NCBI GenBank assembly: GCA_029261895.1
Contig: JAJDAK010000011.1
Location: 3,424 to 67,423 of the forward strand
Length of the DNA stretch: 64,000 nt
Origin: Deltaproteobacteria bacterium
GTDB taxonomy: Bacteria; Myxococcota_A; UBA9160; SZUA-336
Direction: 5' to 3'
The notes under the pieces are model-generated. The model ran no database searches, had not been told where the DNA came from, and saw nothing but the letters and a program-made list of their open reading frames with translations. Every line of letters begins with the position of its first letter. The stretch's first letter is position 1. The position numbers and the translations under genes are program-made. Positions 2,637 to 64,000 of the stretch are shown piece by piece.

Positions 2637-2755
2637 GAGCCAATACCCCCGGCGCCAATTCTCGCAGGATACCCTTTTTCGACGCCAACGGAGTCCCAGC
2701 CGTTGTAGAATATCGTCTGACACACCGTCAGTTTTCTGTGAAGGGAAAGGATCAG

Positions 2756-5700
2756 ATGCCAGCGCGGTACCTCATGGGCTTGGACCTCGGCGGCAGCGGA
2801 GGGCGCTGCCTATTACTGGATCCGGATTCCGGAGAGCAGTTCGTGAGCACGCGCGCCTGGCGCCACGCTCCGGTTCAAGACCAGGGCAATCTCGCTTTCA
2901 ACCTTAACTTTAATGAAATCGATCAAGCCCTTACCAACACCATTGCTGAGGCGCTGGAGCTGGCGGGAGCACAGGCTTCGGACATCGCTGGAATCGCGTG
3001 TACCGGAATGCGCCACGGCATGGTCCTGACCGATCGCGACCTGCAACCCATCTTCGCGGTCCCGACCCGCGATACACGAGCTGCGCTCAGCATCGGCGAA
3101 CTGGTGAACAGCGTCGGACCGCGCTGTTTGGAAGAATGCGGTTCCTGGCCGAACCCGGTTCATCTGGCTACCCGACTGCGCTGGCTCGCAACCACCCAAG
3201 ACGAGCTTTGGCGAGAGGCGAGCTGCGTGCTCGGCATCGGCGAATACTTTGCAGCGCGGCTCAGCGGCGAAGCCGCTGCGGAGCCCTCCCAAGCCAGTGC
3301 CAGCGTGTTGTTGAATCTCGCGAGCCGCGATTGGGCCTGGAACTTAATAGATGACTTGAACTTTCCACGTGAACTCTTTCCAGCAGTTCGTGTTGCAGGA
3401 TCTCCGCTTGGACATGTCACAGACGAGGCCGCCTCGGCGCTTGGATTGACGCCCGGCACGCCGGTGATCATCGGCGCTGGCGATACGCATGCTGCGTTGC
3501 TGGCGGCTGGCGTTGTGGAGCCCGGGCAGATAGGTATCTGTGCCGGTAGCACGGCTCCGCTCATGGGCGTTCTCGAGACGCCGCGCATCGATCCCGACGG
3601 TCGCCTTTGGGTCGAACCCCATATCATTCCTGGACGCTCGGTCGTTGAAAGCAACGCCGGTGGCGTCGGTGAAGCGCTCGAATGGTTCGCCCGCTTGCTC
3701 TTCCGCGATGAGATCTACCCGATGGATCACCTCTTTGCGAACGCCGCCGAAGCCAGGCTTGGATCCCGCGGGGTGCTTTCGACTTTAGGGCCGCAGGTGA
3801 TGGACGGAAAGTCGCTCGCTTTCCCCCTCGGCCGTATTCACCTCACACCGTTTTCACTGATCGACACCGCAGCCGATCGCGCGGATCTCGCGCGTGGTGT
3901 GGTGGAAGGGATCGCCTATGGGTTGCGCGCTAACGCCGAACAAATCATCGCGCATATGGGGACGGTCCCCGAGGAAATCGTAATTACCGGTGGACTGGCG
4001 AGGAATACATTCTTCACTCAACTCTTGAGTGATGTATTGAATCGCCCTGTTGCGGTAGCCAAAGGCGAGCAGACCACGGCGCTGGGAGCTGCACTCTCTG
4101 CCGGGGTCGGTGTAGGCGTATTCGAGAATCTCAGCCAGGCCAGCGCAGTCACGCGTGCTGTGGAACGCCGACATGAACCCCATCCCGATCACGCCGCCGC
4201 CTACGAGTCGATCTACCAAGGTTGGTCGCGTGTTCGTAATGCGGCGATGCCCGGGGATGCCGAGGCGGCCGGCTTGACGATCCAGACTTCGCTGCGTGAA
4301 GCACCAGCGGTCCAATCCTCAGCCGCGCTGCGTTTTCGTCCGAAGATTCTGGTGACCGCTGAATTGGATGCGTTGAGCCTCGAGCGGCTGCAGAATTTGG
4401 GTGACGTCGAGTACGCGAGTTTTCGCGACGCCATGCGGTTGCTCACGGGACCCGACTTGGTCGAAGCCCTCAAAGGCGTACACATCTTCATCACGGAAGT
4501 GGATGTTGTTGACGCTGCGGTGCTCGAACAAGCGACAGACCTCCGGGCGATCGCCATCTGTCGCAGCGACGCGGTAAACGTGGACCTCGAAGCCTGTACC
4601 GCCGTTGGCATCCCCGCGTTGCACGCACCCGGTCGCAATGCCGACGCGGTGGCGGATCTCACACTCACCTACATGCTCACACTGGCGCGCAAATGGGTCG
4701 ATGCCACGCAGTTTCTGCAGCGTCCCGGCGGCGAGGCCGGCGACATGGCGCGGATGGGTCAGGCGTTTCAGGAACTCCTGGGTCACGAGCTTTGGCAGAA
4801 AACCGTCGGCTTGGTTGGCCTGGGTGCCGTGGGTCGACAGGTCGCGAAACGTCTGCAAGCATTCGGCGCAAAGCTCTTGGTCTTCGATCCATATCTCCCG
4901 TCTCAGGCCGCGCGTGTGCTTGGCGCAGAACCCGTTGATTTAGACGAGCTACTCACGCGCAGTGATTTCGTCAGCCTGCACGCTCCCGTTACTCCCACGA
5001 CTGAAGGGATGATCGGTGGGCCCGAGTTCGGACGCATGAAACAGGGTGCGATGTTGATCAACTCGGCTCGCGCTGCGTTGGTCGACTACGACGCGTTGAT
5101 CACGAGTTTAAAGAGCGGTCACTTGGGTGGCGCCGCGGTGGATGTCTTTCCGATCGAACCGCCCGCGGCCGACGACCCGCTGCTCTCCATACCCAATTTG
5201 ATCGCGACGCCACATATCGGTGGGAACACCGTGGAGGTCGGCGCCCACCAGGGCGAGATTATTACGGACGATCTCACACGCATGCTCCGCGGCGAAGCGC
5301 CGCAGCACGCGTTGAATCCCGCTGCACTCGAGCGGTTCCGTTGGGACGGAAGTCGGGAAACCCTGGACACCGACACCTGGGATGACCTCAAGCGCGCCGC
5401 AGGTCCGACGGTCTCGGGTCCACAGAGGGCACCCGCCGTTGCAGCGGTTGCGGCAAAGCCCGAGACGGATCCAGCCTCGCGCCGCGACGACGCACAGTAC
5501 GTGAACGCGCGAGCCAAGATGCAGCCGCTTCTCGGAGCATTCGTGGCGGATTGTCTGGACGATGATGCGCTCGGCACGTTCGCTAACGGCAAATCCGTCA
5601 TCCTGCATTTCATCTTGAACGATCTCGACTTGGACTTTCAGCTGGGCTTTGCGGGTGACCGTGTCATCGGTGAGCTAGGCGCACCGAATCCAGATCCTGA

Positions 5701-6580
5701 CGTACAGCTAAAAATGAAAGCCGATATTTTCGACGGCATGTTCACGGATCGCGTCAATCCAATGCAGGCTGCGATGAACGGAAAGCTCAGCTTCAGCGGC
5801 GATACCGCGAAAGCGATGACGCTGCAACAGATTCAAGCGGATCTCTCACGAATCTACAGCGCCACACGCGAGAGAGTTGGAGATCCCGGGGATCTCGGCG
5901 CGCTCGAGCCTGCTTCGGCCGCGGTTTCGGTCCCGGAAGGCGGCGAGGGCCAAGCGTTGAAACAGGAATTGGTCGACGTGGTGAACGAACTCTATTCCAC
6001 ACAGTTGATCACGGCGACCGGCGGGAACGTCAGCGCGCGAATTCCGGAAACGGACGAACTCTGGATCACACCCAGCCAACTCTTTAAGGGCGACCTCTCG
6101 CCCGAAATCCTGGTGCGCATCGATATTGAGGGCAAGGCGGTGGGAGACCAAGCCCTCTCGGCGTCGAGCGAACGTATGATGCACTGCGCGATTCTGAAAG
6201 CGAAACCGGAAGCGCAGGCCGTTGTTCACGCGCACGCCCCCCATGCGACCATTCTTGCCAATACCGGCCTCCCCTTCTTACCGATCTCCACTGAAGCGGC
6301 GTTCTTCTCGGAGATCCCACGCATACCGTTCATCATGCCGGGTACGAACGAGCTCGCAGAGGCTATCGCGGAAGCGATCGGTGATGGTTGGGCGGTCTTG
6401 ATGCAAAATCATGGGTTGTTGGTCGCGGGTCGCAGCCTGCGCCGAGCCGCAGACATGGTCGAAATCATTGAACGCACCTGTGAAGTGATTCTGGGTTGCT
6501 ACGCCGTCGGTAAAGAACCGCCCGTGCTACCCGAAGAAACCGTTGCGATCTTGCGAGAGATGGGCGACCTCGTCGCCTAG
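2756..6580 (+). CDS. Four-domain fusion protein: FGGY carbohydrate kinase, D-isomer-specific 2-hydroxyacid dehydrogenase, SCP2 sterol-carrier domain, class II aldolase/adducin domain
   Basis: One continuous frame (ORF track 2738..6580 from a GTG start). The ATG at 2756 follows the AGGA-rich stretch ending at 2751. Kinase: GLDLGGSGG...IGAGDTHAALLAAG...GGLARNTFFTQLLSDVLNRPVAVAKGEQTTALGAALSAG. Dehydrogenase: VGLVGLGAVGRQVAKRLQAFGAKLLVFDPY...NLIATPHIGGNT. SCP2: NPMQAAMNGKLSFSGDTAKAMTLQQI. Aldolase: ATGGNVSAR...SSERMMHCAILKA...VVHAHAPHATILA. Confidence 0.8.
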   Translation: MPARYLMGLDLGGSGGRCLLLDPDSGEQFVSTRAWRHAPVQDQGNLAFNLNFNEIDQALTNTIAEALELAGAQASDIAGIACTGMRHGMVLTDRDLQPIFAVPTRDTRAALSIGELVNSVGPRCLEECGSWPNPVHLATRLRWLATTQDELWREASCVLGIGEYFAARLSGEAAAEPSQASASVLLNLASRDWAWNLIDDLNFPRELFPAVRVAGSPLGHVTDEAASALGLTPGTPVIIGAGDTHAALLAAGVVEPGQIGICAGSTAPLMGVLETPRIDPDGRLWVEPHIIPGRSVVESNAGGVGEALEWFARLLFRDEIYPMDHLFANAAEARLGSRGVLSTLGPQVMDGKSLAFPLGRIHLTPFSLIDTAADRADLARGVVEGIAYGLRANAEQIIAHMGTVPEEIVITGGLARNTFFTQLLSDVLNRPVAVAKGEQTTALGAALSAGVGVGVFENLSQASAVTRAVERRHEPHPDHAAAYESIYQGWSRVRNAAMPGDAEAAGLTIQTSLREAPAVQSSAALRFRPKILVTAELDALSLERLQNLGDVEYASFRDAMRLLTGPDLVEALKGVHIFITEVDVVDAAVLEQATDLRAIAICRSDAVNVDLEACTAVGIPALHAPGRNADAVADLTLTYMLTLARKWVDATQFLQRPGGEAGDMARMGQAFQELLGHELWQKTVGLVGLGAVGRQVAKRLQAFGAKLLVFDPYLPSQAARVLGAEPVDLDELLTRSDFVSLHAPVTPTTEGMIGGPEFGRMKQGAMLINSARAALVDYDALITSLKSGHLGGAAVDVFPIEPPAADDPLLSIPNLIATPHIGGNTVEVGAHQGEIITDDLTRMLRGEAPQHALNPAALERFRWDGSRETLDTDTWDDLKRAAGPTVSGPQRAPAVAAVAAKPETDPASRRDDAQYVNARAKMQPLLGAFVADCLDDDALGTFANGKSVILHFILNDLDLDFQLGFAGDRVIGELGAPNPDPDVQLKMKADIFDGMFTDRVNPMQAAMNGKLSFSGDTAKAMTLQQIQADLSRIYSATRERVGDPGDLGALEPASAAVSVPEGGEGQALKQELVDVVNELYSTQLITATGGNVSARIPETDELWITPSQLFKGDLSPEILVRIDIEGKAVGDQALSASSERMMHCAILKAKPEAQAVVHAHAPHATILANTGLPFLPISTEAAFFSEIPRIPFIMPGTNELAEAIAEAIGDGWAVLMQNHGLLVAGRSLRRAADMVEIIERTCEVILGCYAVGKEPPVLPEETVAILREMGDLVA

Positions 6581-7650
6581 GACTGAACCGTTCGCTTGCC
6601 CAAGAGATTGAGCTTGTAGCGACGTATCGTCTCGGGGGCGATCCGTTGACCATCGGTGCTCTCAAATGCGAGCGCGTCCATCGGGCATTGCACGACGCAA
6701 GCACCACAGCGCACACAACGATCGTCATGAGCCAAAATCGCTTTACGAGGCTCTGATTGTTTTTCGAAGCACGCTTCCGGACAAACCTCCCAACATGAGA
6801 ACACGCCCTGGCAACGATCCCGGTCTAGAGAGATCCGCCACTCGCGCTCCGCAAAATGACTTCCACCTTCAATAGGCGTTGAACCGGAGTAATCGAATGT
6901 CAGTACACCGGACAAAAACCATGTCGAGAGAAATGCAGCAGCCCAGGTGCTCGGACCCCCATGGATACAAAGGACCACGAGTGCAGCGACCGCAGTTGCA
7001 AGTAGCGTGAACAAGGTTCTTCGCGGTTCTGGCAAGCGGTCATAGAACTGAAACATGGTGATCGCAAGGACGACCGCCCAAATGACAATCGGCAAGGCGA
7101 ACTCGGAAAATGCAAACGCCCCAACGCCACCGACTACGATCGCCGTAGGAGTCGCCCAGGCGGCCGCCATTTCCAAGCGTTCACGCGTGCCGAAGCGTAC
7201 GCGCCGCATTGCGTCGTCTTTCTTCGCGCCACGCGCGAGATAGCGCGGAATATCTACTGCATCCACGGGACCGAAACGAACCTTCCAACCACAGCGGCGT
7301 GACACCTCGCGTGCTTCAACGCCCGTCGCCGCCAGTTGAGGCAAGATCGCACGCCGATGGGTGACTCGATCTTCGATGCCCGAAGTTTTGAGCGCACTCA
7401 CGACCTGATGCGTGCTGAAGTGTCCTCCCGCAGCCGCGCACCAGATATTGATGCCCGAACTCGGCGCAACGACCAGCCACGCGTCCATACCTTTGAGGGC
7501 TCGGATCACAGACCGAACCGTGAAATCGTAGTTCCCGGTCACGAGTACCGGACTGCTCGAATCCGGTTGCCCGATCGCTCGCAGGCCCGGTTCGGTCGAC
7601 CAGGGAAAAAGACGAAAGCCGGTTTGCATGACGTTGCGCAAGAGACTCAT
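6577..7650 (-). CDS. HgcA-like corrinoid-binding membrane protein fused to an HgcB-like 2x[4Fe-4S] ferredoxin (fused HgcAB-like)
   Basis: ORF track 6577..7893. The ATG at 7650 forms an ATGA overlap with the stop of the upstream methyltransferase. The N-terminal domain has the HgcA-family signature VLVTGNYDFTVRSVIRALKGMDAWLVVAPSSGINIWCAAAGGHF and the downstream DRVTHRRAILPQLAATGVEAREV motif. About 4 predicted TM helices follow. The C-terminus has CQGVFSCWEVCPEAC and CVRCGACVVQCP. Confidence 0.75.
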   Translation of the reverse strand: MSLLRNVMQTGFRLFPWSTEPGLRAIGQPDSSSPVLVTGNYDFTVRSVIRALKGMDAWLVVAPSSGINIWCAAAGGHFSTHQVVSALKTSGIEDRVTHRRAILPQLAATGVEAREVSRRCGWKVRFGPVDAVDIPRYLARGAKKDDAMRRVRFGTRERLEMAAAWATPTAIVVGGVGAFAFSEFALPIVIWAVVLAITMFQFYDRLPEPRRTLFTLLATAVAALVVLCIHGGPSTWAAAFLSTWFLSGVLTFDYSGSTPIEGGSHFAEREWRISLDRDRCQGVFSCWEVCPEACFEKQSEPRKAILAHDDRCVRCGACVVQCPMDALAFESTDGQRIAPETIRRYKLNLLGKRTVQS

Positions 7651-8300
7651 GGGTTTGGCTGCGCGACAATAACGACGAGCGTTCCAAACAAAAACCGCTG
7701 CTCGTGATGGATACGAAACCCGGCGCCCGTAATTTCTTCGACAAGATTGGGAATCGGTCGTGACACTGAACCGACCCAGAACCAACCCAACAAGGCTTGC
7801 GGAACACGCATGAAGGCAAATGTAATGCGTGCAAACACGCCAGATGGGCGCACTTCGTCGGCGATAACCAACAATCCACCGGCGCGAATACATTCGCGCG
7901 CGGACTTGAGCACGTGGTGACGCTCTAGACGCGAGAGTTCAGAGAATGCAAAACTTGCAACGACGGCATCGAACTCTCCGGGTTCAAACTGATCGACCTC
8001 GGCAGCGGTTTGTTCGAGCCAGCGTAAGTTTTGGGCATCCACGAGACGTGTTTTTGCAATCGCAAGCATCTCCGGATTCTGGTCCAGCGCCACCACACGG
8101 GCACCGCGAGCCACCAGCTTCGCCGTAAGCGATCCCGTACCACAACCGATTTCGAGTACGTGAGTTCCGTGCACCGATACCGCAGCGTCTGCGACCGCAC
8201 GATGTATCCGTCTTGCCCGTCCCAACGTTAGTATGTTCATACCCACGTCGTAGCGTTCGGGCGTCGACTCGAGCCATCGCATCAGCGCAAGCGAACTCAT
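7647..8300 (-). CDS. Class I SAM-dependent methyltransferase (Methyltransf_11/25-type)
   Basis: 217 aa. Motif I is VLEIGCGTGSLTAKLVARGARVVALD. The gene has 4-nt ATGA overlaps with the upstream TetR (8297..8300) and the downstream HgcAB-like gene (7647..7650). Confidence 0.8.
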   Translation of the reverse strand: MSSLALMRWLESTPERYDVGMNILTLGRARRIHRAVADAAVSVHGTHVLEIGCGTGSLTAKLVARGARVVALDQNPEMLAIAKTRLVDAQNLRWLEQTAAEVDQFEPGEFDAVVASFAFSELSRLERHHVLKSARECIRAGGLLVIADEVRPSGVFARITFAFMRVPQALLGWFWVGSVSRPIPNLVEEITGAGFRIHHEQRFLFGTLVVIVAQPNP

Positions 8301-8878
8301 GCTGCTAGCACCTTGCGAACACTCATCACTAAGGCTGTTTCAAGTCCGCCGATATCATCAAACGCTCGCCGATCCGCCAGGTACTGCAGAAGCAGACCAT
8401 CCATCGACGCGATCAAAAACGACGCCGTCCAAACTGAATCGAGGTTCGAATCAATCGATCCATCGCGCTGGCCTTCAGCGATCACCTCGGCGAGCAATTG
8501 ACGAATACGCCGAAAAAAATTTCGAAAGTCCAATGCTCGCAACGTGTGCAGGTCGAGCGTGATCGATCCGTTCCGCGACCAGGCTTCAAAGACGTGGCTC
8601 ATTCCAGTCATCAACTGCTCGATACGGCGCGTCGATTCGCCTTTCGACTCCAAGACGCCCCGGAATAGCTTTTCTTCGCTCTCGAGGAGATCACGCGCGA
8701 TGTCGCGAACCAACGACGACTTGTCGGGGTAGTAGTGGTACAGACTTGATCGACCCATACCGGCCGCATCCGCCACCGCGGCAAGCCCGGTGCCTTTGAT
8801 ACCCCGACGTCCAAACACACGCCGAGCGGCAGTTCGAATCTCGGCTTTCTGCGCCACACCATCGACGATCTTTGGCAT
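8297..8878 (-). CDS. TetR/AcrR-family transcriptional regulator
   Basis: 193 aa. The N-terminal helix-turn-helix is RRVFGRRGIKGTGLAAVADAAGMGRSSLYHYYPDK. It is the first gene of the TetR-MTase-HgcAB-like operon. Confidence 0.8.
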   Translation of the reverse strand: MPKIVDGVAQKAEIRTAARRVFGRRGIKGTGLAAVADAAGMGRSSLYHYYPDKSSLVRDIARDLLESEEKLFRGVLESKGESTRRIEQLMTGMSHVFEAWSRNGSITLDLHTLRALDFRNFFRRIRQLLAEVIAEGQRDGSIDSNLDSVWTASFLIASMDGLLLQYLADRRAFDDIGGLETALVMSVRKVLAA

Positions 8879-60560: not shown

Positions 60561-62341
60561 GGACCGTCCCCGCGAATGAGCTTTCCGGGCAAGAAACCCG
60601 TCGGTTCGCCGTTTTCATAGATCACGTGGCCTGAAACCAGGGTGTAGTCATAGCCCCGGGCGCCTTGAAAAAGTCTGCGACCCCCTGCGGGTAGATCAAA
60701 GATCATTTCGGGACGAGTCAGATCGAGGCGCTCAAAGTCAATCACGTTGACGTCAGCCTTCATTCCCGGCGCAAGTAGGCCGCGATCCCAGAGCCCGTAT
60801 TGTTCGGCGGTATCGCGGGTTTGTCGACGCACAATGAATTCCAACGGTAGGCGTTCACCGCGTTTTCGATCACGCACCCAGTGCATCAACATGAACGTGG
60901 GTGTACTCCCATCACAGATGGCGCCACAGTGCGCACCACCATCAGCGAGGCTCAGTCCGGTCTGCGGATGTTTCATGGTTTCGAGAATTGCGTCGAAGTT
61001 CCCTTGCGCGTAGCCAAAAAGCGGAAAGTAGAGGAACCCCTTGCCGTCCTGATCGAGCATGGCGTCATAAACCAGCTCAGCGGGGCTGCGACCACTGCTT
61101 TCGCAAAGCCCAGCAATCGACTTCGATGCGTCGGGCTCATAGTCGTGCTCACCACGCATCGGAAACATCTTATGTGTACTCGCAACCAGGAACTCGAGAA
61201 AGATCGGGGGAATCGGCGGGTCCTCGGGGAGGCCGTCGGTTCTGAGCTTGCCACCATCAATGAGCCGAGCGCGCACCTCTGGCCGTCGGAGTTGCGCGAG
61301 TCTTTGCTGGAACGGCAACTCCGCAAGCTTGGCGTATTCGGGGTGCCCGATAAACGGGTGAACCGTCGTCTGCCAACCCATCAAGACGCCAACCGGCCGA
61401 CCTGAAAATTGACCACGCAACTGCGTAATGCCTTCGGCCCGTGCTTCATCGAGCAAGCGCAGCCCCTCCTTATAAAGTTCCGGCGCTTCATCGATCTGCT
61501 GCAAATTAAACGTGACGACACGCCCTGTTTCGCGCGCGAGATCCTTCATCCACTTCATCTCGTTCGGAACTTCACGATGTGTGACGCTCATTTGGAACAC
61601 GCCGGCTTCCAATTCGCCTAAGACACGACCGATGCCAAAGAGCTCCTCACGGTTCGCGAAGGTTCCCGGCACAGCGTCGCCTGTAAGCGTGCGATGGAGT
61701 TCCGTACGGGATGTTGAAAATCCGAGTGCACCGGCACGAATGCTTTCCCGCACAATCTCACGCATCGCCTCGATATCTTCCCCCGTGGCATCCTCATTGC
61801 GCACGCCGCGATCACCCATGACGTAGGTACGCAGTGCGCAATGCGGGACCTGCAGCCCATAATCGATCGCATGCAGGCGACGCTCGAGCGCATCCATGTA
61901 CTCGGGGAAACTCTCCCACTCCCACTCGATGCCTTCGTGCATCGCGGAACCGGGAATATCTTCAACCGCTTCCATCAGGTCGATCAGGTCGCCGCGCTGC
62001 GCCTCGTGAACCGGCGCGAAACCAACGCCGCAATTTCCCATCACGACAGTCGTTACACCGTGGTTCGATGACGGTGTGAGGTAAGGATCCCACGTCGCTT
62101 GTGCATCGTAGTGTGTGTGAATGTCGACCCACCCGGGCGTAACAAGTTTGCCCTGAGCATCAATTTCCCGGGCACCCGAACCTACATCTGTACCAACCGC
62201 GTCGATTTTGCCCTTGGAAATACCAAGATCAGCTTCGAAGGGGGCCGCCCCACTACCATCGACCACCGTCCCGCCACGTATCACGACATCATACTGACTC
62301 ACGGAAACCTCCTGATCGGCACATCCTATCAAACCCAGCAC
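60557..62341 (-). CDS. D-aminoacylase / N-acyl-D-amino-acid deacylase family amidohydrolase
   Basis: 594 aa. GTG start. YDVVIRGGTVVDGSG...VDIHTHYD. Confidence 0.8.
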   Translation of the reverse strand: MLGLIGCADQEVSVSQYDVVIRGGTVVDGSGAAPFEADLGISKGKIDAVGTDVGSGAREIDAQGKLVTPGWVDIHTHYDAQATWDPYLTPSSNHGVTTVVMGNCGVGFAPVHEAQRGDLIDLMEAVEDIPGSAMHEGIEWEWESFPEYMDALERRLHAIDYGLQVPHCALRTYVMGDRGVRNEDATGEDIEAMREIVRESIRAGALGFSTSRTELHRTLTGDAVPGTFANREELFGIGRVLGELEAGVFQMSVTHREVPNEMKWMKDLARETGRVVTFNLQQIDEAPELYKEGLRLLDEARAEGITQLRGQFSGRPVGVLMGWQTTVHPFIGHPEYAKLAELPFQQRLAQLRRPEVRARLIDGGKLRTDGLPEDPPIPPIFLEFLVASTHKMFPMRGEHDYEPDASKSIAGLCESSGRSPAELVYDAMLDQDGKGFLYFPLFGYAQGNFDAILETMKHPQTGLSLADGGAHCGAICDGSTPTFMLMHWVRDRKRGERLPLEFIVRRQTRDTAEQYGLWDRGLLAPGMKADVNVIDFERLDLTRPEMIFDLPAGGRRLFQGARGYDYTLVSGHVIYENGEPTGFLPGKLIRGDGP

Positions 62342-62573
62342 ATGCCACGCTGGATCCTCACCGACGTTCTATGCACATGGGCAGCCCGTCCTTCGGGCGG
62401 ATGCACTGGCGTGCGCCGCCACCAAAGGGGAATACGCGAAGCGCGCTCGAAAAAGTTTCGCTTTGTGCTCGACCCAGGGCAAGTCAGTCATATAACCGAT
62501 GACCTCCCCGGTCCGTCTACCCCCTGCACGCTGGTACTGCTAAAAGCCGACCTCTATGACTTCAGCTCTAGCC

Positions 62574-62605
62574 TTGACTCTGTAGTAAGGTACAGGGTCT
62601 ACAGT
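62574..62605 (+). promoter_or_regulatory. Candidate MerR-type promoter: TTGACT, 20-bp spacer, TACAGT, with an imperfect dyad across the spacer
   Basis: Read directly from the sequence. The over-long 20-bp spacer is typical of MerR-family promoters. It lies about 30 nt upstream of the merR-like start. Confidence 0.35.
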
Positions 62606-62633
62606 ATCAGCATTGGAGATCGCGGTGGAATCC

Positions 62634-63038
62634 ATGACAATCGGACAAGTGGCCAAGCAGACCGGTGTCGGTATCGAGACCGTTCGCTTCTACGAGCGCG
62701 AGCGGATGATTCCCAAGCCGCCTCGTCGGTCTTCCGGGTACCGCGCCTATCCGCTGGAAACCATTGCTCGCGTGGCATTTATCCGCAACGCGAAGGAGCT
62801 GGGCTTCTCGCTGCGAGAAATTCGGGAACTACTCTCCCTCCACGTGGACTCGCGCGCAAACTGCAAAGCGGTAAAGCAAAGGGGCGAAGAGAAAATCGAG
62901 GATATCAACAGCAAGCTCCGACGCCTTCAACGCATGAAACGCGAACTCACCAAACTCTTGCATGCATGCAATGAGCGGCAGCCAACTGGCCCCTGCCCAC
63001 TCCTCGATGCGCTCGACCACAAAGACCTCGGCCTTTAG
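62634..63038 (+). CDS. merR: MerR-family metalloregulator with the mercury-type three-cysteine site
   Basis: ORF track 62613..63038 (TTG). The ATG at 62634 gives MTIGQVAKQTGVGIETVRFYERERMIPKP. Cys77, Cys112 and Cys121 (RANC ... LLHAC-x8-CPLLD) are spaced exactly as Cys82/117/126 in Tn501 MerR. Confidence 0.8.
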   Translation: MTIGQVAKQTGVGIETVRFYERERMIPKPPRRSSGYRAYPLETIARVAFIRNAKELGFSLREIRELLSLHVDSRANCKAVKQRGEEKIEDINSKLRRLQRMKRELTKLLHACNERQPTGPCPLLDALDHKDLGL

Positions 63039-63046
63039 ACGGTGCG

Positions 63047-63253
63047 ATGATGGAAATAACATCAACCATCACCTGCCCGCATTGTCAGCATACGAAGGTC
63101 GAGGAAATGCCGACGAACAGTTGCCTCTTCTTTTACGAGTGTGCCGGTTGCCAGCGTCGGTTAAAGCCGAAGTCGGGAGACTGTTGCGTATTTTGCTCGT
63201 ACGGAACTATTCGCTGTCCACCAAAACAACAGGAAGAAGGGTCCGACACATGA
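63047..63253 (+). CDS. Small Cys-rich GDCCVxC-motif protein (68 aa, 9 Cys)
   Basis: CPHC...CLFFYECAGC...SGDCCVFCSYG...CP. Starts 8 nt after the merR stop. Confidence 0.65.
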   Translation: MMEITSTITCPHCQHTKVEEMPTNSCLFFYECAGCQRRLKPKSGDCCVFCSYGTIRCPPKQQEEGSDT

Positions 63254-63633
63254 CGAGTTCCATCACAGCACTGGATTGGGTCGCTCGAAGGCGCAGCTGG
63301 TTTCTGTTTTGGGGTGCACCCTCGATTGCAATCGCGGTTTCTGTCGTAGTGACATCAGATCAAATGACGCTAGGAATCATCTGGAGTGCAGCATTACTTC
63401 TTATGAGCGGTGCGTGCTTGATGAACGCTCGTCGCTGCGGCCGCCTGCACTGCTACCTCACCGGCCCATTTTTCCTCGTGATGGCTCTACTGTCGATGGC
63501 GGAGGGATTGGGGATCATCTCCCTCGGCCCCCACGCATGGCCACGGCTTGGTGCGATCCTAGTCGCCGGTGGCGCTTTCCTTCACTTCGTCCCCGAAAAG
63601 CTCTGGGGCAAATATCGGCAGCGACAGGACTGA
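63250..63633 (+). CDS. 4-TM membrane protein with an intramembrane/loop Cys cluster (C-x7-C-x4-HC)
   Basis: ATG at about 63250 forms an ATGA overlap with the stop of the GDCCVxC gene (reading frame of ORF track 62962..63633). Sequence: MTSSITALDW...SGACLMNARRCGRLHCYLTGP.... Confidence 0.5.
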   Translation: MTSSITALDWVARRRSWFLFWGAPSIAIAVSVVVTSDQMTLGIIWSAALLLMSGACLMNARRCGRLHCYLTGPFFLVMALLSMAEGLGIISLGPHAWPRLGAILVAGGAFLHFVPEKLWGKYRQRQD

Positions 63634-63806
63634 CCCGACACTCACCGGCACATCCGCCGAGACCGAGTCACCCTGAAACCTGACCCGGGCTGGGGTGTGT
63701 CGATCATGGCATCACTTACTGATGCTCTTCCTCGGGATGCCTTCCTCAGATTCTTCCGTATGGATCCTATGGGACCCTTCGAGTAATGTGTTGATCGGAG
63801 GAACCC

Positions 63807-64000
63807 ATGTCCCACCAAGACATCGTTGAAGATTTACCCTTTAAGCTTGGACAACTCGACCACGTGGTGCTCCGGACAATCAACGTTCAGACGATGCTGG
63901 ATTTCTATGCTGCGCTCGGTTGCAACGTCGTGCGCAGCAGTGAGAAACTGGGTATGCATCAGCTAAGGGCCGGGTCCTCAATGATTGACATCGTCGACGC
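63807..64000 (+). CDS. VOC/glyoxalase-family protein. N-terminal part only, since it continues past the window end.
   Basis: MSHQDIVEDLPFKLGQLDHVVLRTINVQTMLDFYAALGCNVV... Confidence 0.5.
   Translation, partial: MSHQDIVEDLPFKLGQLDHVVLRTINVQTMLDFYAALGCNVVRSSEKLGMHQLRAGSSMIDIVD

Follow-up and report, generated by a model that had tools for sequence, protein, structure and literature searches.

A MerR-type operon without merA in a Deltaproteobacteria bacterium: a probable Hg(II)-responsive module of a regulator, a GDCCVxC protein and a membrane protein

We analysed a stretch of 64,000 nucleotides from a Deltaproteobacteria bacterium (GTDB lineage Bacteria; Myxococcota_A; UBA9160; SZUA-336), namely positions 3,424 to 67,423 of the forward strand of contig JAJDAK010000011.1 (assembly GCA_029261895.1); this whole stretch is referred to below as the window. 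Close to its right-hand end, three genes encode a MerR-family regulator with three cysteines, a small protein of the GDCCVxC family and a predicted four-helix inner-membrane protein. Based on the comparisons described here, the three genes probably constitute an autoregulated, merA-less accessory operon under a single MerR-type promoter, responsive to Hg(II). This operon is a pared-down mercury-type module rather than a system of a new kind, and its regulator adds a new member to a known family.

The regulator begins with MTIGQVAKQTGVGIETVRFYERERMI and contains three cysteines in total, in the contexts SRANC (Cys77), LLHAC (Cys112) and TGPCPLLD (Cys121). The public gene call (P0001, 137 amino acids) starts instead from a GTG at 62625, which has a GGAG ideally spaced 7 nt upstream; this choice raises the residue numbers by three and leaves the cysteine spacing unaffected. 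In Pfam, the protein matched the MerR helix-turn-helix models PF13411 (65.4 bits) and PF00376 (52 bits) and the dimerization-helix model MerR-DNA-bind PF09278 (69.9 bits), all above the cut-offs, indicating the presence of both the winged helix-turn-helix and the long helix. Among PDB chains searched with HMMER, the best match was the Bacillus MerR chain 4ua1 (90 bits, 1.5e-24), followed by the Tn501/Tn21 MerR chain 5crl (86.6 bits), CadR (79 bits), CueR (75 bits) and 5gpe (68 bits). The top NCBIfam model was likewise MerR (TIGR02051, 129.5 bits), ahead of CueR (112.7 bits), ZntR (112.2 bits) and CadR-PbrR (107.2 bits). A preliminary description of the window, made from the letters alone, had proposed a heavy-metal regulator of the MerR family with Cys77, Cys112 and Cys121 in this reading frame; the open reading frame, its translation and the Pfam domains all agree with that proposal, as do the best structural and curated-family matches.

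We next consider the three cysteines, using two references: a Tn501-type MerR from plasmid CP075759.1 (144 amino acids, Cys82/117/126, adjoining merTPADE) and the Bacillus MerR chain 4ua1. Both HMMER and MAFFT alignments placed Cys77, Cys112 and Cys121 in the Hg(II)-ligand columns of the two reference proteins. In the MAFFT alignment, which included the CueR, ZntR and PbrR comparison that had been proposed as a check, Cys112 and Cys121 bound the C-terminal metal loop and fall in the columns of the loop cysteines of MerR, CueR, CadR, PbrR and ZntR. The spacings of 35 and 9 residues, previously compared with those of Tn501 MerR, are equal to those of the fetched sequence. This 35/9 spacing, with a proline after the last cysteine, was kept in 110 of the 120 closest database homologs, and the three-cysteine pattern is therefore a conserved feature rather than a product of chance. 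The first metal site is a cysteine in the regulator and a serine in CueR, a cysteine at this position being the mark of a divalent-ion sensor. At the level of sequence comparison, the 35/9 spacing does establish the regulator as a predicted sensor of a divalent thiophilic metal.

The window regulator shares with Tn501/Tn21 MerR the winged helix-turn-helix and coiled coil, the aligned Hg(II) ligands, the 8-residue loop and the Cys-Pro-Leu sequence. It differs in its moderate overall similarity, as reflected in the HMMER score of 5crl and in scores below the cut-offs of TIGR02051 and NF010315, and in the replacement of His81 and His118 of Tn501 by Asn76 and Asn113. Compared with Bacillus MerR of the RC607 type (4ua1/4ua2), the best solved-structure match, the 35/9 spacing is the same and the alignment is gapless, but the window gene has no linked merA or merB.

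The regulator gene and the two genes downstream of it share one direction; the regulator gene is separated by 8 bp from the GDCCVxC gene, whose stop codon overlaps the start of the membrane-protein gene (ATGA). From this direction and these junctions we read the three genes as an autoregulated operon with merR first, and the ATGA overlap suggests translational coupling of the GDCCVxC and membrane-protein genes, as judged from the codon arrangement. Upstream of the regulator, we found a MerR-type promoter (Table 1), which a generic sigma-70 scan with spacers of 16–18 bp misses because its 20-bp spacer is over-long. The same arrangement, TTGACy-20 bp-TAnnnT, was present upstream of merR in five homologous loci (L003, L173, L174, L175 and L138), and the promoter already marked at this position in the preliminary description is therefore taken as real; in L090 and L026, the two other loci examined, the architecture was not matched. 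The operator of L003 is a perfect 9-2-9 palindrome, CCCTGTAGT-AC-ACTACAGGG, and that of L138, CCCCGTAC-TATG-GTACGGGG, is near to the Tn501 site TCCGTAC-ATGA-GTACGGA. The window promoter shares with that of Tn501 the −35 sequence TTGACT, an over-long spacer and a GTAC-type dyad in the same register. It differs from the Tn501 operon in its spacer of 20 instead of 19 bp, in the position of merR, which is co-directional and first instead of divergent, and in the lack of merTPAD.

Table 1. Positions of the operon and of other features in the window, with reference promoters
Feature	Position	Strand	Detail or evidence
merR-like heavy-metal regulator, 134 amino acids	62634..63038	+	Cys77, Cys112, Cys121; open reading frame translation, Pfam, NCBIfam and PDB-chain matches
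GDCCVxC-domain protein, 68 amino acids	63047..63253	+	NCBIfam NF041374, 101.4 bits against a cut-off of 40
Four-helix inner-membrane protein (predicted), 127 amino acids	63250..63633	+	Invariant Cys3His motif; AlphaFold2 (AF2) model
MerR-type promoter	62574..62605	+	−35 TTGACT 62574-62579, 20-bp spacer, −10 TACAGT 62600-62605; sequence and homologous loci
Imperfect dyad operator (predicted), in promoter spacer	62577..62598	.	ACTCTGTAG-TAAG-GTACAGGGT
Reference promoter, Tn501 merT			TTGACTCCGTACATGAGTACGGAAGTAAGGT; spacer 19 bp
Reference promoter, pbrA			TTGACTCTATAGTAACTAGAGGGTGTTAAAT; spacer 19 bp
Reference promoter, zntA			TTGACTCTGGAGTCGACTCCAGAGTGTATCCT; spacer 20 bp
Glyoxalase/VOC-family gene	63808..64000, runs off window end	+	174 bp past the membrane-protein gene
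Fused HgcAB-like protein	6577..7893, probable true start near 7650	-	NF043039, 398 bits against a cut-off of 285
SAM (S-adenosylmethionine)-dependent methyltransferase	7647..8300	-	Immediately upstream of the HgcAB-like gene, with the TetR regulator
TetR regulator	8297..8878	-	
1280-amino-acid open reading frame	2738..6580	+	FGGY sugar kinase, D-2-hydroxyacid dehydrogenase, SCP2 and class II aldolase; unusual four-enzyme fusion

To place the regulator among its relatives, a neighbour-joining tree was built from 35 MerR-family regulators of the fetched loci, labelled by their neighbouring genes, and 7 references, with 200 bootstraps. The window regulator grouped with its counterparts from L003 (Candidatus Eisenbacteria), L138 and L090, in a clade recovered in 163 of the 200 bootstraps (82%). 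This clade nests in a group that contains both reference MerR proteins and most of the regulators located beside merT, merP, merA, the GDCCVxC gene or the membrane-protein gene; the mer-linked sequences outside the group were those of L108 and L120/L121 and the MerD-like sequences of L097/L099. The neighbourhoods of close homologs read merR-merC-thioredoxin (L173), membrane protein-merR-merT (L090) and merR-x-x-membrane protein (L003). The predicted placement of the regulator among mer-linked regulators is supportive of a mercury function, but not decisive.

The strongest argument for mercury comes from the membership of the two accessory families in mer operons. The GDCCVxC protein of the window is a clear member of NF041374, a named family for which we found no published function: its motif reads GDCCVFC, it has nine conserved cysteines and all invariant family columns are present in the alignment. 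It represents the all-cysteine (Cys-Cys) form and is not a selenoprotein. Its AF2 model (pLDDT, the predicted local distance difference test, 78.6) gave only weak matches to zinc-ribbon-like folds, and a Foldseek search of the model against the PDB returned nothing at E<=0.001. No identical protein was found in a database of 5.8 billion clusters. The 68-amino-acid gene (2530-2736 in L001) was left out of the public gene calls on the same contig and is thus an overlooked small gene. The family was detected in at least 599 species genomes and on 354 plasmids. We surveyed its neighbourhoods with one genome per species and kept 80 loci, in which mer genes were detected with Tn501 references only. 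MerT or MerTP was encoded directly upstream on the same strand in 35 of these loci; ArsR-type regulators were found in 19 and MerR-type regulators in at least 15. As a separate observation, two GDCCVxC copies lie within a few kb of each other in L079 (3962-4195 and 4986-5186).

A short MerA-like flavoprotein stood beside the GDCCVxC gene in 7 of the 80 loci. In L013, L028, L054, L060 and L083, a flavoprotein of this kind, of 448–461 amino acids and with a CALRGC redox motif, adjoins the GDCCVxC gene together with MerT or MerTP. These proteins have neither the NmerA domain nor the C-terminal cysteine pair and are not canonical MerA; they may represent a distinct disulfide reductase recruited to GDCCVxC operons. 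The idea that the GDCCVxC protein substitutes for NmerA beside a short MerA was weakened by this finding, the 448-amino-acid proteins without the C-terminal cysteine pair being only MerA-like.

The membrane protein matched no Pfam or NCBIfam family. Its homologs share the invariant motif ACLxNARRCGRxHCYxTGPFF. In the AF2 model (pLDDT 88.2), which has four helices, the turn connecting helices 2 and 3 carries Cys56, Cys63, His67 and Cys68; from the charge distribution, the positive-inside rule predicts this turn to be cytoplasmic. The family comprises about 1001 representative clusters at 50% identity (E<=1e-3) and occurs on 95 plasmids. With hhalign, the family showed no relationship to Tn501 MerE or MerT (probability below 1%). 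Like MerE, MerT, MerC and MerF, it is a small inner-membrane protein with an essential-looking cysteine set and is found in mer operons; unlike them, it has four helices and carries Cys3His at a cytoplasmic turn instead of a cysteine pair in the first helix.

Neighbourhoods of the membrane-protein family were collected by a metagenome scan that confirmed 527 relatives. We kept 80 of these; mer genes were again detected with Tn501 references only. The gene lies directly after a genuine merA, whose product ends in SCCAG, in L160, L106/L112 and L119-L121; the layout of L160 is merR / merA-membrane protein, with no other mer-associated open reading frame detected there. It lies between merD and merE in L097 and L099, and after merTP-GDCCVxC in L096, L144 and L158. 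The GDCCVxC gene immediately precedes it in 13 of the 70 loci that have room upstream, and the pair is part of complete mer operons in L026, L032, L096 and L158. In the conjugative IncC plasmid pIP40a (L177, NZ_KX709966.1), a family member at 4971-5366, annotated as 'hypothetical', belongs to a complete Tn3-family mercury transposon with the order merR-merT-merP-merC-merA-EAL-merD-like-membrane family-hypothetical-Tn3 transposase. Its place there, downstream of the merD-like gene, is roughly the merE position of Tn501-type operons. The family was also seen on plasmids of Shewanella ANA-3, Citrobacter, Providencia, E. coli and Alteromonas, and two copies lie within a few kb in L087 (4001-4381 and 6028-6309). 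We considered orf4 and orf5 of the pMR68 mer operon as possible equivalents of the accessory genes and rejected them, as the source paper gives no indication of equivalence.

The window operon is not alone in its small size. In L142 and L147, merR, the GDCCVxC gene and the membrane-protein gene occur with nothing else detectable, merR being divergent in both, and L089 contains the GDCCVxC-membrane-protein pair without merR. The closest regulator homologs on long contigs also head operons without merA: merR-merC-thioredoxin-like-YHS in L173, merR-106 amino acids-thioredoxin-like in L174 and merR-260 amino acids-thioredoxin-like in L175. Small Thioredoxin_3/glutaredoxin-like proteins of 86–89 amino acids recur in merA-less merR-merC and merF operons (L173, L174, L175 and L087), which suggests the existence of a family of modules that combine a sensor, a transporter and a small thiol protein. 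Earlier, the two downstream genes had been described simply as the sole apparent regulon of the regulator. The identity of the two genes as accessory members of mer operons had been missed. In comparison with the canonical mer operon, merR-merTP(C/F)-merA-(merD-merE), the window operon likewise places membrane and thiol-rich proteins under a MerR-type switch, and its accessory families occur inside mer operons (L026, L032, L096, L099, L106, L158 and pIP40a). It differs in that MerA and the classical transporters were not found in the window.

A number of observations weigh against an Hg(II)-responsive operon, and some of them would suit a regulator of the PbrR, CadR or ZntR kind that senses Pb(II), Cd(II) or Zn(II), with the small proteins buffering or moving that metal, an alternative that we consider unlikely. 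With respect to the regulator itself, the score against TIGR02051 is below the equivalog cut-off of 150.85 bits, and that against NF010315 is 91.7 bits, compared with a cut-off of 261. The CueR, ZntR and CadR-PbrR models trail MerR by just 17–22 bits, and none of them reaches its cut-off. Because all equivalog cut-offs are missed, NCBI rules would name the protein only as heavy-metal-responsive, and the homolog P0060 indeed carries only the NCBI name 'heavy metal-responsive transcriptional regulator'. The lead sensor PbrR of pMOL30 (NC_007971.2, 114583-114996, 100% identity to the reference sequence used) has Cys79/114/123, with the identical 35/9 spacing and the same 8-residue loop; the spacing is therefore not diagnostic of mercury. 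What had been described as a spacing exactly of the Hg(II) type thus stood as a match to the MerR Hg(II) ligands, and fell as a mark specific for mercury. In the tree, the split between the MerR group and ZntR/PbrR/CadR/CueR was recovered in only 126 of the 200 bootstraps (63%).

The promoter adds to these points, since the half-site CTCTGTAGT, of the form CTCTnnAGT, matches those of zntA and pbrA at 8 of 9 positions and that of Tn501 mer at 6 of 9, and the 20-bp spacer has the length found at zntA, compared with 19 bp at merT. The operator cannot identify the metal, because L138, whose regulator belongs to the same clade, has an almost Tn501-like site. Some GDCCVxC genes lie outside mer contexts, near heavy-metal P-type ATPases (12 of the 80 loci), RND (resistance-nodulation-division) pumps (11 of the 80), ars genes or thioredoxin-CcdA genes; on a Sinorhizobium plasmid the gene follows thioredoxin-CcdA-symporter genes, and on a Cupriavidus plasmid it stands beside ars genes. 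About half of the membrane-protein loci have no mer gene detectable with the Tn501 references. A literature search for 'GDCCVxC' found no papers, and we found no experimental work on either accessory family. No homologs of MerA, MerT, MerP or MerE were found anywhere in the 64-kb window (phmmer, Tn501 queries, E<=1e-3), in agreement with the earlier remark that no merT, merP or merA follows the regulator. The three operon proteins matched no Pfam or NCBIfam model of MerC or MerF, two proteins for which the whole window was not searched. Finally, a scan of 62300..64000 detected no terminator that would mark where the transcription unit ends.

Against a lead, cadmium or zinc sensor, both the PDB and the NCBIfam top matches are MerR, and the tree puts the window protein among mer-linked regulators. 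The residue that follows the last cysteine is also that of MerR: the regulator reads Cys-Pro-Leu-Leu, compared with Cys-Gly in PbrR, Cys-Ala in CadR and Cys-Ser in ZntR. In the structural study of Tn501 MerR, the CPLI sequence is conserved and the P127L substitution is defective in activation (PMC5027573). In addition, the metal loop of CadR is shorter, and the extra cysteine and histidine ligands of ZntR are absent from the regulator. Thus PbrR, CadR and ZntR share with the window system the first-site cysteine and the half-site, and in single cases the 35/9 spacing (PbrR) or the 20-bp spacer (zntA), but differ in lower scores and in the features of the metal loop. No efflux ATPase adjoins the regulator, and no P-type ATPase, the target of PbrR, CadR and ZntR, is part of the operon. 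Both downstream families are linked to merT or merA far more often than to other metal genes. The Cys-Pro-Leu-Leu sequence and the best curated score lean towards MerR.

It is very unlikely that the three genes are the decaying remnant of a larger mer operon that lost merT, merP and merA together with its metal function. The missing mer genes would fit such decay, as would the flanks, which belong to unrelated metabolism (amidohydrolase, solute symporter, aldehyde dehydrogenase and a glyoxalase-family gene). However, the three reading frames are intact, with every invariant family residue present, and so are the promoter and dyad, which are also conserved. The minimal architecture is found again, independently, in L142, L147 and L089, and merA-less operons of merR, transporter and thiol protein exist in L173, L174 and L175. 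The intact reading frames and promoter, and the recurrence elsewhere, suggest that the arrangement has been selected and is not debris. A redox- or drug-sensing member of the MerR family (SoxR, NmlR or BmrR type) with incidental cysteines is effectively refuted: SoxR and NmlR gave weak matches (51.7 and 45.9 bits), but the heavy-metal models scored 100–130 bits, the SoxR motif CX2CXCX5C is missing from a protein with three cysteines only, the protein ends 13 residues past the last cysteine and has no C-terminal ligand-binding domain, and 110 of the 120 homologs keep the metal-site pattern.

On the reading of a mercury-responsive operon, its action can be outlined by analogy with the mechanism of the MerR family, which rests on the Tn501 and Bacillus MerR structures (PMC5027573, PMC4551924). 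The apo dimer on the dyad would hold the promoter inactive. A thiophilic divalent metal, which to judge from the gene neighbourhoods would most probably be Hg(II), would be bound by Cys77′ of one subunit and Cys112 and Cys121 of the other. The metal-bound dimer would then untwist the spacer, allowing RNA polymerase to open the promoter, and expression of all three genes would rise. From its placement in mer operons, the GDCCVxC protein may be a cytoplasmic cysteine-rich Hg(II) binder or hand-off protein. The membrane protein, by the same token of placement, may take the part of MerT, MerE or MerC as an Hg(II)-handling component, delivering Hg(II) to thiols in the cytoplasm by moving it across the inner membrane or along it. 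With no MerA linked to the operon, the pair could feed a reductase encoded elsewhere, or could buffer or sequester the metal. A precedent for separated genes is Synechocystis, in which merR and merA are reported to be unlinked (PMC6741143).

Of the remaining genes, the glyoxalase/VOC-family gene next to the operon might be co-transcribed with it; no terminator was detected between them, and the gene is not conserved downstream of the operon in related loci. About 55 kb away, the window also encodes a protein that had been called HgcA-like and counted as a second mercury-related family. This designation was not upheld: by NF043039 the protein is an HgcAB-like fusion paralog, and it fails the HgcA equivalog NF040863 (HgcA_corrinoid; 176.6 bits compared with 275). 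It comprises a CdhD corrinoid domain, transmembrane helices and a C-terminal 2x[4Fe-4S] ferredoxin, and its cap-helix variant reads NIWCAAAGG. The Pyrococcus furiosus fused form, the sole tested member of this clade, does not methylate Hg (PMC10083202). The co-occurrence with the operon carries little weight because of the 55-kb distance and the unrelated neighbourhood, in which the gene lies immediately downstream of those for the methyltransferase and TetR regulator of Table 1. A mercury 'island' of the HgcAB-like gene and the operon was rejected for this distance, with unrelated genes lying between, among them P450, Rieske, TetR and sugar-kinase fusion genes; we see nothing that connects the two functionally.

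Mercury resistance is among the best-understood metal systems, yet two recurrent genes of mer operons are without an assigned function, and the membrane family has no curated model and is called 'hypothetical' even in the mercury transposon of a clinical IncC plasmid. It is possible, and we propose it tentatively, that the GDCCVxC protein and the membrane protein form a self-sufficient, uncharacterized Hg(II)-handling pair, acting either in uptake and hand-off or in membrane-anchored sequestration. In full mer operons, such a pair could stand in for MerT/MerP and the NmerA domain; alone under a MerR-type switch, it could give MerA-independent tolerance in uncultured environmental bacteria. As a caution for the annotation of related regulators, the three-cysteine 35/9 spacing alone cannot separate mercury from lead sensors. 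The operon offers a compact pair of sensor and promoter for studies of metal specificity, and the minimal merR-GDCCVxC-membrane-protein arrangement is a clean natural construct, free of interference from MerT, MerP and MerA. If the proposal is true, two widespread 'hypothetical' genes, some copies of which are carried by clinical IncC and Pseudomonas plasmids, would count as new mer genes.

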